DNA of 64,000 nucleotides, from IMG/VR virus record IMGVR_UViG_3300033149_002250, positions 1,355 to 65,354 of that record. One strand, given 5' to 3'. The stretch is from a virus. Its lineage: Duplodnaviria > Caudoviricetes. A program made the translations under genes and the position numbers. This document shows, piece after piece, positions 57,276 through 61,636 of the stretch. The number at the start of each line of letters is the position of its first letter. The first letter of the stretch is position 1. The notes below the pieces were generated by a model that was not told the origin of the DNA, ran no database searches, and saw only the letters and a program-made list of their open reading frames with translations.

Positions 57276-58679
57276 TTATAACAGGTCGCACACGATCTGC
57301 TCATCGTCGCTGGCCTCCGCCGTTAGAATCACGACGCCGGTGCTCTTGGCAACCTCGGCCACCTCCTTTCGGTTTACCGGATCGAGCGATTCCCACGCTT
57401 CCTGGGGGACCGCCACCAGTCCGCCCTTGCCCACTTGGGTGGCCGCGATCTCCAAGGCAATGCGCCACCTTTCCCCAGGCGACAACTCTGCAAAGGGCTC
57501 TGCCCCCCGATCCGTGTCGCAGACCAGCACGCCATCCTCGACGCGCAGCTTGGACGTGACCTTCGCCACCCAGTCAGAGAGGATGCTGTCGGTCGCCTTG
57601 GCGGACCCCCGCAGCATTTCTGCCTGACGCAGCCTGTCGTCTGCGGCAGAGAGCAGCTTGTCCGCTACCTCCAGGTTGTGCCGGGCCTCCTCGCGGCTGA
57701 TGGCAAGCTCGTGTTCGCGCTTGGCTCTTTCGACCCGCTCGGTGGCCGCGGCAAGCTCCGCGTCGGTCGGACCTTCCGGGATGTCGCCAAGCACCTGCTC
57801 CAGTTCAGCCATCTCCCTTTCGGCCTGTTCTGCCGCGTGTAGGTCGGACTCAAGCTCAACAAGCCGTGCGCGCTCAGCCTTTAGGCTGGCTTCGAGTTGG
57901 GCGATTCGCTCGCGGCTCTCGACCACCCGTTGGCGAATGTCCACAGCAGCCTTCGAGGTCTGTTTCAGGGAGTCCAATCGTCGGGCTGCCTCCTCTGCTT
58001 GGGCGGCACGCTTTTCGGCCTGCTGTCTTTTGACCTCTAGCTCGCGGCGGGCGAGCAGTGCGTTTGAGAGTTCCTGCTCGGCCTCCTTGGGAGAGGGGCC
58101 GCTCCCGATCTCCTCCGGCAGCCTTTCCTTCACTGCGACGGCTTGGGCTTTGAAGTCGCGGGCCGCCGTCTCGTGCTGCCTGGCCGCGGCCTCTAGCTCC
58201 CGCTTGAGTCTGGCTGCCATCGACACCAGATCGCCGTGCCTGGCAGCAATCGGCAGCAGTTCCTCCAAGTCGTACCCTGGCGGCACTATCGGCTCAAACT
58301 CCTTGGCTTCGCCGGCAGCCCCGGCCAACTGGAGCAGAGCCTTGACTCGCACCCTGTTTGCGGCCGACTCGTCTTTCAGCCCAGGATCGACCAGCTGAGT
58401 GATGTCCAGTTTCCCTTCAAGCGTCTGGACCTCGGCTTCCCCGGTGCGCCGCATGCTGCGGCCGATGGTAAGCCTTACACCCACGCCCTCCACCTTCCCT
58501 TTTTTGGCGTGATCTCGCACTGGTGGCCGACCCCGCTTGGAGACAGCCGCTTCGACTGCCTCCAGCGCATGGCTTTTGCCGACCCCGTTACGGCCCCGCA
58601 ACACGACCACGCCGGCGTCGGGAAGGGGGATCATCAGGTGTTCAACTGGCCCGACGTTTTCTAGGTTGATTTCTCGCAT
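57276..58679 (-). CDS. Rad50/SbcC/SMC-like ABC ATPase with coiled-coil
   Basis: Walker A GRNGVGKS, a long coiled-coil, signature LSPGE and QEAWESLD (degenerate Walker B / D-loop). Confidence 0.8.
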   Translation of the reverse strand: MREINLENVGPVEHLMIPLPDAGVVVLRGRNGVGKSHALEAVEAAVSKRGRPPVRDHAKKGKVEGVGVRLTIGRSMRRTGEAEVQTLEGKLDITQLVDPGLKDESAANRVRVKALLQLAGAAGEAKEFEPIVPPGYDLEELLPIAARHGDLVSMAARLKRELEAAARQHETAARDFKAQAVAVKERLPEEIGSGPSPKEAEQELSNALLARRELEVKRQQAEKRAAQAEEAARRLDSLKQTSKAAVDIRQRVVESRERIAQLEASLKAERARLVELESDLHAAEQAEREMAELEQVLGDIPEGPTDAELAAATERVERAKREHELAISREEARHNLEVADKLLSAADDRLRQAEMLRGSAKATDSILSDWVAKVTSKLRVEDGVLVCDTDRGAEPFAELSPGERWRIALEIAATQVGKGGLVAVPQEAWESLDPVNRKEVAEVAKSTGVVILTAEASDDEQIVCDLL

Positions 58680-58689
58680 CGTTTCTCTC

Positions 58690-58858
58690 CTTGCGCTCGC
58701 TCGGGAGCCAGCCGTGGGGCGCATCCCCGTCGCCGGCCGGCCTCGGTCAACCAAACCTGCGCTCCCCTGGGAGCGTGCCGGTGAGCCCACCTGCCGCACA
58801 CGTCGTGCATCGCCCTTGTGCCTGCGCTCCCCTGGGAGCGTGCCGGTGAGCCCACCTG
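58690..58858 (-). CRISPR. CRISPR-like mini-array: two identical 38-bp repeats, one degenerate terminal repeat and two spacers (27 and 28 bp)
   Basis: Repeat CAGGTGGGCTCACCGGCACGCTCCCAGGGGAGCGCAGG at 58821-58858 and 58756-58793, with a 25/38 degenerate copy at 58690-58727. Internal hairpin CGCTCCC/GGGAGCG; period 65-66 bp. Confidence 0.7.
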
Positions 58859-58859
58859 G

Positions 58860-59040
58860 GCAAGACTTAACTCCTTTCTGTCACTGAGGTTGCGACAGCT
58901 CCGCAGCCCCTCAAGCCGGCACTCCCGGAAGGCCCGGGGGCTGTCCCGTGTGGGAATATCCCCGGCTCTTCGCAGCGTTCCTGGACCGTGCCGCCGCGCT
59001 GGGCATTGCGGCCGTGTCCGGCTTCGGCCTGGCAGTGGCC
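58860..59040 (-). ncRNA. Candidate tracrRNA/scaffold region with an anti-repeat at 58910-58926
   Basis: Minus-strand GGGA-GUGCCGG-CU-UGAG can pair with repeat CUCA-CCGGCAC-GC-UCCC (15 bp, two 2-nt bulges). Boundaries are unknown. Confidence 0.5.
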
Positions 59041-59041
59041 G

Positions 59042-59722
59042 TTATAGCACCTTTTCTAATTCGGCACGAAGCTCATGCAGTACCCGAATTGTTTCGTCGC
59101 TGTCGTCCAGCATGCCAGTACGGACAAGCAGAATCAACTGCCGTGCATGAAAGGTAGCCGGCATTCCCGACAGCTTGGGCACCGCTTCGATCTGCTCGTC
59201 CGTAAGGACCGCGCCAGCCAAATGGTCCAAGCCACGTTTCAGCGGTACTGGCGTGCCGTTCTTCGCCACGGCGACCCTGCCTTCGGCCAGTGCCTTTATG
59301 TCGCTTGGCCGCATACACAGCGCCAAGGCGACGCTCTTGACCGCCACGCGGTACTTCTTCGCCAGGATTAGGCACCGCGTCTTGTCCTGCTTCGTAAGAG
59401 ACCTGCCGTGGGCTGCATTGAGCCGCATCGCATCCAGCAGCAACTCGCGGTCACTGGGATACTCGCGCAGCTCAACGGCAACGATGGGGTTGTCACCAAA
59501 CTCTCGCTTGTAGGCTCGATAGCGATGAAAGCCATCGACAATTCTCTTGCTCCTTGCCTCAGCAATAATCGGCGGCAGGCTGGCGCCCCCGCGGATCGCA
59601 TCGCACAAATTGGCCACGTGCTGACTGTCCACAGTCTGCCTGGGATACAAGTCCCAGTCAAGGACCAGTTCACTCAGCGGCAGCTGGGCAAGCCTTACTT
59701 TCGGCGACGCGATCTTCGCCAT
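59042..59722 (-). CDS. ParB/Srx N-terminal (CTPase-like) domain protein
   Basis: LYPR, LPPII, IVDGFHRYRA (GxxR patch) and LNAAHG.SLT..DK, followed by a possible HTH. Confidence 0.85.
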   Translation of the reverse strand: MAKIASPKVRLAQLPLSELVLDWDLYPRQTVDSQHVANLCDAIRGGASLPPIIAEARSKRIVDGFHRYRAYKREFGDNPIVAVELREYPSDRELLLDAMRLNAAHGRSLTKQDKTRCLILAKKYRVAVKSVALALCMRPSDIKALAEGRVAVAKNGTPVPLKRGLDHLAGAVLTDEQIEAVPKLSGMPATFHARQLILLVRTGMLDDSDETIRVLHELRAELEKVL

Positions 59723-60923
59723 TGGGCAGCTCCTTTCCTGTGATGAAGGACAACCCTTGGCCGTGGGCCTTGTGCTGTAACTGGGTCACGAAGGTGTGCC
59801 AGGGAAAGCCATTCCGGCGGGGCTCGGTGTCCAGCCAGACGATCCCAGCGAATCCGTTACGCTTGGCATAGCCGACCACTTGGGCCGACAATTGGTGTGC
59901 CGCCGTGTCCATGCGGCGGCGGTACTTCTCGGCAAGCGACTTGAACCGGCTGCGCAGCTTGCCGCGGACCTCCATCTTGGCGTCCTCGCTCAGTCGCCGC
60001 AGCCGCCGCTGGTGCTCACGCTGCCACCTGGCAACGTGATCGGCATTGATGGTCCAGAGCTTATTCTGTTTGGCGTTCACCGCCTGTAGCAGACAATCCT
60101 CGCCAGGCATTACGAACAACAAGCCCCGGCTGCCGTCCGGCTGCCCATCACGTGGAAGCCACAGACACATCTTGCAGAGCAACCTGCCGACCTTGCCGAT
60201 ACCTGGCCGGTGGTCGCCGCTGGAGCCCTTTTGTTCATACAAAGCCACCTCGGCCCGCAATGCTTCGCCTGCCAACAGTTTCTCGAAGGCAGCTAGCTGT
60301 CTGCGGTAATCGTGGCCGCCACGCAGCCTCAGATGCACCTGCCGCCCGGCCAGCCGGATACGCACCACCGGCCGCCCCTGTTCGTCCCGCAAAGCCCGCC
60401 AGTCCTTCGCGCGAATGGGAAGCACCGCCCGGTCGTAGCGGAAGTTCGGCACAGACTCGTTGCCGAGCCAGATGACGTTGTACCGCCGTTTGCGCCAGCG
60501 GCCCTCAACTGCGTGCAACACGGCACAAACCGTGGACGGCTCCAGTTCCGGGCACAACTTGCGGGCTTCGGGGTAAAGGTACACAGCCGGGGCCTTCGGC
60601 AGTTTTTCCATTTCCGGTGTGCGCACCACGTCTGCCTTCGCCAGCTGAGTTATGGCCCAGTTGCTCAACCGGACGGTCGCCCGCCAAGCGGCCTTTAGCC
60701 AGTCGCGCAGCTCCGACCACTCGCAGTCCGTCGGCCCCGCCACCGGAATAGTTACGGCCCGCAACACGTAGCGGTCCTTCCAGCAGGTGGCACACATCAC
60801 ATCGCCAGACGGCAGGCGATGCCAGCCGGGCGGCAGCCGCTTCGCCTGGGTCGTTTTGCCGCAGCCCGCGCACACGTACTCACGCTCCTCCGCTGCCATG
60901 GCATTGCCCTCCTGCTCACTCAT
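59670..60923 (-). CDS. Nuclease-dead TnpB/Cas12f-like RNA-guided DNA-binding protein with an N-terminal Zn finger
   Basis: C-terminal HQLSAQVVGYAKRNGFAGIVW and FPWHTFVTQLQHKAHGQGLSF align by eye with the TnpB/Cas12 RuvC region. The RuvC-I Asp position reads LFVMPG; the TNB Zn finger and RuvC-III are absent. Confidence 0.65.
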   Translation of the reverse strand: MSEQEGNAMAAEEREYVCAGCGKTTQAKRLPPGWHRLPSGDVMCATCWKDRYVLRAVTIPVAGPTDCEWSELRDWLKAAWRATVRLSNWAITQLAKADVVRTPEMEKLPKAPAVYLYPEARKLCPELEPSTVCAVLHAVEGRWRKRRYNVIWLGNESVPNFRYDRAVLPIRAKDWRALRDEQGRPVVRIRLAGRQVHLRLRGGHDYRRQLAAFEKLLAGEALRAEVALYEQKGSSGDHRPGIGKVGRLLCKMCLWLPRDGQPDGSRGLLFVMPGEDCLLQAVNAKQNKLWTINADHVARWQREHQRRLRRLSEDAKMEVRGKLRSRFKSLAEKYRRRMDTAAHQLSAQVVGYAKRNGFAGIVWLDTEPRRNGFPWHTFVTQLQHKAHGQGLSFITGKELPNGEDRVAESKACPAAAE

Positions 60924-61569: not shown

Positions 61570-61632
61570 TGTTCCACGTGAAACATTCGCCTGTGTTTCA
61601 CGTGAAACGGCACCTGTGTTCCACGTGAAACG
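61570..61632. promoter_or_regulatory. parS: Three tandem parS centromere sites
   Basis: TGTTCCACGTGAAACA (61570-61585), TGTTTCACGTGAAACG (61594-61609) and TGTTCCACGTGAAACG (61617-61632) match the bacterial consensus TGTTNCACGTGAAACA. Confidence 0.9.
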
Positions 61633-61636
61633 GCGA

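Follow-up and report, generated by a model that had tools for sequence, protein, structure and literature searches.

What does a phage do with a relative of the RNA-guided nuclease Cas12 that has lost its catalytic residues together with its C-terminal end? The question is raised by a gene on the minus strand of a 64,000-nucleotide (nt) stretch of phage DNA (59670-60923, in the coordinates of that stretch, hereafter the window), which comprises bases 1355-65354 of the complete 65,354-bp virus record IMGVR_UViG_3300033149_002250, a record with direct terminal repeats and a portal gene. Read from its first ATG, the open reading frame (ORF) encodes 417 amino acids (aa); a database gene call begins at Met9 of this form (60899), which is likely the true start and gives a protein of 409 aa. 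We consider it probable that this effector is a non-cutting, RNA-guided DNA binder, belonging to a minimal type V-like system that is carried by the phage, lacks adaptation genes and would act in the manner of CRISPR interference. We favor this reading because the nucleic-acid-binding core of Cas12f is kept, because an RNA is linked to the gene throughout the family, and because the natural nuclease-dead Cas12f (dCas12f), TldR and Cas12m behave in this way.

A single-sequence search of the PDB with the effector returned chance matches alone (E of at least 0.83). A family profile, built from 51 of 99 homologues found by a word-indexed protein search, matches OsCas12f (9nzq_A, E 4.5e-11), 9i8y_A (8.2e-8) and AsCas12f (1.2e-7), followed by natural dCas12f (9n9c_A, 1.5e-5) and the TnpB of ISFba1 (8iaz_A, 0.014). 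The AlphaFold2 model of the effector, built on the alignment, reaches a predicted local distance difference test score (pLDDT) of 90.8 and a predicted template modeling score of 0.84. In Foldseek it finds AsCas12f first (8j12_A, 3.9e-17) and, lower, dCas12f (2e-15), Cas12k (5.9e-10) and TnpB (2e-9). VIA-align superposes 337 residues on AsCas12f (8dzj_A; Z 24.4, root-mean-square deviation 5.0) and places the whole dCas12f chain (9n9c_A, residues 1-365; Z 22.6) on model residues 46-396, with TnpB (8h1j_A), Cas12k and Cas12m following at Z 16.9, 16.0 and 12.5. The effector thus combines the WED-REC-RuvC core fold and the profile similarity by which members of the Cas12f/TnpB superfamily are recognized. 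The ESM Atlas agrees, leading to clusters that resemble TnpB/Cas12f, a good many of which are viral, as well as to 365-aa clusters from Bacteroidota. An earlier note on this DNA, made from the sequence alone, had taken the protein for a RuvC effector with an additional N-terminal zinc finger and had proposed a structure-based alignment as a check. The identification holds, as Cas12f/TnpB type, by profile, Foldseek and VIA-align alike, and in the structural alignment Cas12f chains come out above dCas12f, TnpB, Cas12k and Cas12m.

The N-terminal finger is indeed an addition. It is a zinc-ribbon-like element with four cysteines (Cys18, Cys21, Cys44 and Cys47, in the motifs C18-A-G-C21 and C44-A-T-C47) that occupies residues ~14-48 (60783-60872, minus strand), delimited from the Cys columns and the model. 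It is modeled with high confidence (pLDDT 95-97 over residues 11-50), and each of its four Cys positions is occupied by Cys in 208-219 of 241 relatives. Because the core alignments to Cas12f, dCas12f, TnpB and Cas12k all start at model residues 46-53, the finger is left outside the shared core. The earlier note had suggested that it may mediate dimerization or partner binding; a prediction of the two-copy complex gave scores of 0.01 and 0.06, which are not evidence either way on a homodimer.

The sequence strings that the earlier note had singled out are all present in the translation of this ORF: LFVMPGEDCLL at residues 269-279, an Arg-rich helix at residues 295-317 that coincides with helix H295-317 of the model, GIVWLD at residues 360-365, and WHTFVTQLQHKA at residues 375-386. 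Residue equivalences were taken from the hidden Markov model alignment to OsCas12f 9nzq_A, and column counts from 241 family sequences. At the remnant of RuvC motif I (residues 268-282; 60078-60122, minus strand), the catalytic Asp of OsCas12f, in "GVDMG," pairs with Met272, in a column that holds Asp in none of the 241 sequences, Glu in 2 and Arg in 129. At the remnant of motif II (residues 358-366; 59826-59852, minus strand), the catalytic Glu, in "MED," pairs with Leu364, in a column with 9 Glu, 156 Asp and 26 Asn. The third position of the D-E-D triad has no counterpart since the chain ends before it. Profile alignment and column counts therefore bear out the absence of the triad and the dead site that the earlier note had read at both motifs, with two corrections of detail: the column of the catalytic Asp is that of Met272 and not that of the Asp in "GED," and within GIVWLD the column of the catalytic Glu is that of Leu364, just before Asp365.

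The loss of the TNB zinc finger and of RuvC-III, also claimed in that note, extends across the family, no member examined having such a segment. The family profile stops at residue 374 of the 433 residues of OsCas12f, so that both elements are without counterpart, and the TNB finger (PF07282) gives no Pfam match to the effector at E<=0.1. Across the family the tail that follows Trp375 has a median length of 37 aa; among 142 further representatives a single one exceeds 480 aa (580 aa), and its tail is of low complexity. A search for longer or fused forms turned up none above 730 aa, which is weak evidence. In the model of the effector itself, the ordered chain stops near residue 396, and residues 407-417 have pLDDT <50.

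This truncated architecture is widespread. Nearly all of the 99 homologues are 385-440 aa long; none carries a precomputed Pfam domain, and every one is named "hypothetical protein." Run against 1.84 billion cluster representatives (clusters at 50% identity), the family profile matches 1406 at E<=0.001, 1055 at E<=1e-10 and 742 at E<=1e-30. With 99 homologues of ~400 aa and 742 clusters at the strictest of these thresholds, the ORF is not a chance frame. Domain libraries do not capture it: a Pfam scan of the effector yields a sub-threshold match to OrfB_IS605 alone (E 0.046, residues 292-357), and a PHROGs scan gives nothing significant. No relative was found by tblastn among 50,697 deposited GenBank phage records, and bacterial genomes seldom carry the gene (4 of 201 Bryobacterales, with two of the four genes in fragments, and 2 of 401 Planctomycetota). 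In one genome (G048:C1:1716595-1723941; L063, L065 and L067), the chromosomal gene lies in three pieces across ~7 kb, with the scaffold RNA described below still detectable next to the last piece; this is probably a decayed prophage copy. For comparison of gene surroundings, 18 related loci were fetched by means of a 15-sequence alignment, 10 of them on viral contigs and 8 on contigs of metagenome-assembled genomes (MAGs) labeled Planctomycetota, Bryobacterales and, once, Saccharibacteria.

What accompanies the gene in all of these places is an RNA. Alignment of the stretch between the effector gene and the repeat array that follows it exposed an element of ~115 nt, a conserved, structured, noncoding RNA that resembles a trans-activating CRISPR RNA (tracrRNA) and that we refer to as the scaffold RNA (58930-59044, minus strand). 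In the window it begins at the stop codon of a ParB-like gene that stands between it and the effector gene. RNAalifold finds compensatory change in 11 of 16 pairs of the element alignment. A covariance model built from nine loci scores the window copy at 97.8 bits and detects the RNA in each of the 19 sources (the window plus the 18 loci), always just downstream of the effector gene and on the same strand; the 10 loci left out of model building still match, at E 1e-10 to 1e-17, and the RNA also adjoins the effector gene at three further genomic (chromosomal) copies. An alignment of 23 matches, which was itself fitted to the covariance model, shows change on both sides in 18 of 22 pairs. Paired cells make up 88.5% of this alignment versus 65.6% in shuffles, 0 of 500 of which reach the observed value, and versus 34-46% when the partners are slid. 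Since its helices covary, selection appears to act on the transcript. The outright label of tracrRNA was considered and dropped, duplexes with the repeat not being clearly better than shuffles. Scans of the window returned no Rfam families and, with ARAGORN, no tRNAs; the sequencing runs listed include no RNA run and one DNA run with a small share.

The scaffold RNA is not confined to the surroundings of the gene. A second copy lies ~54 kb from it in the window (5453-5568, minus strand; 52.1 bits, E 1.7e-10), so that this phage has two copies of scaffold RNA with arrays, and a related phage has four. The latter is a 46.6-kb, 96%-complete contig (G004, the record of locus L004) with copies at 4900-5020, 20543-20663, 28098-28216 and 43468-43586; short repeats follow all four, and one alone adjoins the effector gene.

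Repeat-spacer arrays complete the module. Downstream of the ParB-like gene, a gap of ~360 nt contains, on the effector strand, a mini-array of two identical 38-nt hairpin repeats and one degenerate repeat (66% identity) at 58690-58858 (minus strand); its 27- and 28-nt spacers give periods of 65-66 nt. The stretch between scaffold RNA and mini-array (58859-58929, minus strand) aligns with the first repeats of loci L002-L014 and may carry a first guide. Beside the second scaffold copy, the repeat search found an array of four 32-nt repeats with spacers of 37, 16 and 16 nt (5217-5413, minus strand). Both arrays end at the ribosome-binding site (RBS) of the next gene. The degenerate repeat of the first extends into the RBS of an AAA_23/SMC-like ATPase gene (ATG at 58679), and the second stops directly ahead of a small HTH_17 gene (E 3.6e-10) with its RBS and TTG start; a gene for a YqaJ-like exonuclease comes next.

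Families of direct repeats (at least two copies) follow the effector gene in the window and in 10 of the 18 loci (L001-L008, L014 and L017), among which L017 has a weak two-copy family and L004 has irregular short repeats. Six of the remaining loci have a single hairpin, and two (L009 and L010) have irregular short repeats; in MAG loci a lone hairpin with a presumed single guide comes after the scaffold RNA. Array periods are mostly 65-75 nt (~54 nt in L004), and spacers are mostly unique. The repeats vary in sequence between loci, but all of them form hairpins in which the 3' arm runs up to the spacer. L001, the closest relative of the window (~80% protein identity), has the repeat type of the window and none of its spacers, so that array content turns over. 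Two spacers of L003 (9482-9520 and 9631-9669) are identical at 36 of 39 nt, suggesting that arrays in this family also grow by duplication of units. In L013 (9215-9548), effector, scaffold RNA and a single hairpin-guide are followed ~140 nt further on by a tRNA-Val gene, as at the edge of a prophage. A 28-nt imperfect direct repeat flanking the module in L008 was considered as a protospacer and rejected as a hairpin-like element.

On this basis, a mechanism can be proposed. The effector retains the Cas12f fold in its WED, REC and RuvC-core parts. Gone are the RuvC-I Asp, the RuvC-II Glu (in the window protein), the TNB finger and RuvC-III, and an N-terminal zinc ribbon has been gained. The protein would assemble with the ~115-nt scaffold RNA encoded just downstream, and hairpin-repeat and spacer units from adjacent or dispersed arrays would join the complex. 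So loaded, the complex would locate complementary double-stranded DNA and remain bound to it uncut, where it could act as a roadblock to transcription or replication. The likeliest use would be the silencing of rival mobile elements or the tuning of phage or host genes. That the protein binds DNA without cutting it was also the suggestion of the earlier note, and the conserved guide-like RNA and arrays adjoining the gene now strengthen it considerably.

Several observations weigh against this proposal. Most concern targets, for which the searches covered the phage's own genome, related contigs, GenBank phages and Planctomycetota genomes. Of 37 spacers or array-end stretches tested, one has a match outside its own array. 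The spacers of the window match nothing in the 65,354 bases of their own phage, nor in the 10 related viral contigs and 8 MAG loci. Among the 50,697 GenBank phage records, the first array finds nothing and the second two weak matches (E 0.08), which we read as chance. Against 401 Planctomycetota genomes, the first array yields just six imperfect, GC-rich matches (77-93% identity), lying over the degenerate repeat and likewise read as chance. The single guides of L015, L016, L018 and G192 gave no convincing host match in four bacterial genomes, in searches by BLAST, which misses short guides. As for the RNA, a true tracrRNA would have to pair with the repeats, yet the duplexes between leader and repeat have z-scores of -2.65 to +0.82, in most loci no better than shuffles, and the fitting of the 23-match alignment to its model, mentioned above, also tells against it. 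Finally, some acidic residues of the effector are well conserved (Asp295 in 208, Asp314 in 216 and Glu318 in 196 of 241 sequences), as is an Asp at the RuvC-II position in the 156 sequences counted above. The one match that was found is a perfect one: spacer 1 of L014 agrees at 37 of 37 nt with a site within an ORF on its own contig, 7.7 kb away. Such a self-match could be tolerated by an effector that does not cut, and it counts in favor of the proposal. PHROG scans of the genes of L014, the protospacer ORF included, returned no function.

Could the effector instead recruit another protein? Under this alternative, which we regard as unlikely, it would be an RNA-guided recruiter with the zinc ribbon as a docking surface, and its partner would be ParB-like, an SMC-like ATPase, a sigma factor or a recombinase. 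The idea draws on the zinc ribbon, family-specific, conserved and outside the Cas12f core, and on the setting of the gene in the window, which is that of a replication module: HAD-like gene, effector, ParB-like gene, SMC-like ATPase, replisome organizer and DnaC-like loader. The ParB-like gene (59042-59722, minus strand) matches PHROG 1033 at E 5.4e-10, and Pfam ParB_N at 0.0077, below the cut-off. The AAA_23/SMC-like ATPase gene (57276-58799, with ATG 58679 as its likely start) comes straight after the first array. Three tandem 23-bp units at 61570-61634, each with a palindrome-bearing core of 15-16 nt, sit two genes upstream of the effector, in the gap that precedes the HAD-like gene; we take this core to resemble the bacterial chromosomal parS consensus. 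ATPase, ParB-like gene and palindromic repeats look like a partition- or condensin-like set in the phage replication module, and the recruiter idea gains from the effector module sitting amid them.

Precedents for recruitment exist as well: a natural dCas12f brings in sigma-E (PMC13472631), and Cas12k a transposase (PMC11656645). Locus L007, moreover, has a sigma-factor-like gene after its array (9979-10842). What speaks against recruitment is that no protein neighbor is conserved. BLASTP shows the ParB-like gene to be retained in L001 and L002 only, of the 18 loci, so that it is context and not a conserved partner. Ten neighbors scanned in eight loci are of mixed kinds: a resolvase, an excisionase-like protein, a serine integrase, a major head protein, a sigma-like protein, one PHROG of unknown function and four without a match. 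The serine integrase, or invertase, gene stands ahead of the effector in L008 (7224-7916). The invariant partner is the RNA alone, and, since protein neighbors are not conserved across loci, gene, RNA and repeats appear to form a self-contained unit.

It is very unlikely that the effector is still a nuclease, with an active site rearranged from other conserved acidic residues. We keep a small probability for this because Asp295, Asp314 and Glu318 are so well conserved; in addition, Asp is frequent at the RuvC-II position, and several TnpB branches with rearranged catalytic sites are thought to be active (PMC10691335). Against this stands, first, the absence of the C-terminal segment with RuvC-III and the TNB finger from every member examined. 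At the RuvC-I position, 129 of 241 sequences have Arg and none has Asp, the corresponding residues in the window protein are Met at position I and Leu at position II, and a perfect spacer self-match exists in L014.

Least credible is that the effector is a decoy, akin to an anti-CRISPR, that soaks up the guide RNAs of host Cas12f, or that the repeats are centromere-like DNA binding sites, for although interference with host systems through phage-carried CRISPR parts is known (PMC11656645) and the first array directly follows a ParB-like gene in the window, the phage brings its own conserved RNA beside the gene in 19 of 19 sources, with arrays, while the RNA helices covary, arrays also follow the gene in loci that have no ParB-like gene, and the repeats are hairpins everywhere despite their differing sequence. 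The array was accordingly rejected as a set of ParB centromere repeats, given the covarying RNA and the arrays that occur without a ParB-like gene.

An effector of the RNA-guided, non-cutting kind favored here is of a kind already known, represented by dCas12f, TldR and Cas12m. Natural dCas12f proteins, which are truncated, are led to DNA by RNA and bind it (Hoffmann et al., Nature 2026, PMC13472631). Besides a sigma-E-associated cluster there is one, in Bacteroidota, whose members lie close to CRISPR arrays and whose guide RNAs, upstream of those arrays, were recognized by covariation (PMC13472631). Like the present family, dCas12f (structures 9n9c and 9n9m) is truncated at the C terminus, with part of the RuvC site gone, and has a scaffold-plus-guide RNA encoded beside the gene. 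The sigma-E-associated dCas12f differs in having an operonic rpoE partner. The present family has an N-terminal zinc ribbon and no rpoE: the neighbors in the window are the HAD-like and ParB-like genes, and elsewhere 1 of 10 neighbors is sigma-like. Its members lie in phage genomes and in MAGs labeled Planctomycetota or Acidobacteriota, unlike the Bacteroidota proteins, and its profile matches dCas12f 9n9c more weakly (1.5e-5, partial) than active OsCas12f (4.5e-11).

Active Cas12f proteins (AsCas12f, OsCas12f and Un1Cas12f1; type V-F) are the best structural and profile matches of the effector, and in both a noncoding RNA lies between gene and array. They have, however, the D-E-D triad, the TNB zinc finger and RuvC-III, all three of which are missing here. 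Also unlike V-F systems, the repeats are self-folding hairpins and the phage has no cas1 or cas2; neither PF01867 nor PF09827 matched in the complete 65,354-bp record, in which positive controls did. Many type V subtypes are likewise without cas1 and cas2 (PMC10691335).

TldR proteins are, like the effector, truncated, nuclease-dead members of the TnpB/Cas12 group with an adjacent guide RNA and a proposed role in steric repression, and some are prophage-encoded (10.1101/2023.11.30.569447; 10.64898/2026.09.22.753285). According to these sources, TldRs descend directly from TnpB and have one fixed guide to a neighboring or host promoter, whereas multi-spacer arrays occur in the present family. 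No promoter target was found for the single guides in the four bacterial genomes. The effector is, unlike TldR, nearer to Cas12f than to TnpB (Z 24 versus 17). Cas12m, which keeps a full-length RuvC domain altered by substitutions, resembles the effector in its proposed mode, binding alone, and matches the model at Z 12.5 only. According to a review (PMC11656645), Cas12m has an inactivated RuvC-like domain, blocks transcription without cutting and is carried by mobile elements. Cas12r is phage-borne like the present system and belongs to a type V system usable against rival mobile elements; it is an active nuclease, in contrast to the nuclease-dead effector (10.64898/2026.04.20.719267).

Inactivated Cas12f and V-U branches are mentioned by Altae-Tran et al. 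(PMC10691335). The effector family may overlap a group already named, be it the array-associated dCas12f cluster or one of these branches. In the literature so far found, we encountered no description of a family this large that is phage-borne, carries a zinc ribbon, has this scaffold RNA and dispersed guide loci, and has hosts outside Bacteroidota and Firmicutes, which is not proof of absence.

Elsewhere in the window, ~20 copies of a 7-nt unit (alternatively, 3.6 copies of a 35-nt unit) occupy 39599-39738, in the divergent region that separates the leftward from the rightward gene arm.

It is a recent insight that relatives of Cas12 and TnpB without nuclease activity can be natural RNA-guided regulators, as in TldR, the sigma-E-linked dCas12f, Cas12m and Cas12k. 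To these the present family adds members that are phage-borne, very diverse, outside Pfam and equipped with a covarying scaffold RNA of their own. Its single-guide and multi-spacer forms bear on how systems of tracrRNA plus array collapse into single guides, and its compactness, at ~400 aa with a scaffold of ~150 nt, makes it a candidate for programmable DNA binding. A bolder and doubtful extension is that the family is a large phage-specific class of RNA-guided DNA binders, a natural "phage CRISPRi," whose scaffold RNAs and arrays, dispersed over the phage genome, would be the leaders of early operons, with the zinc ribbon coupling the bound complex to RNA polymerase or to a clamp- or condensin-like partner, for instance the products of the neighboring ParB-like and SMC-like genes. 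If this were true, guide production would be tied to early phage transcription, and phages would program the silencing, compaction or exclusion of rival DNA or host loci without breakage. For the proposed silencing system itself, the question that now arises is what the phages of Planctomycetota and Acidobacteriota silence with it.

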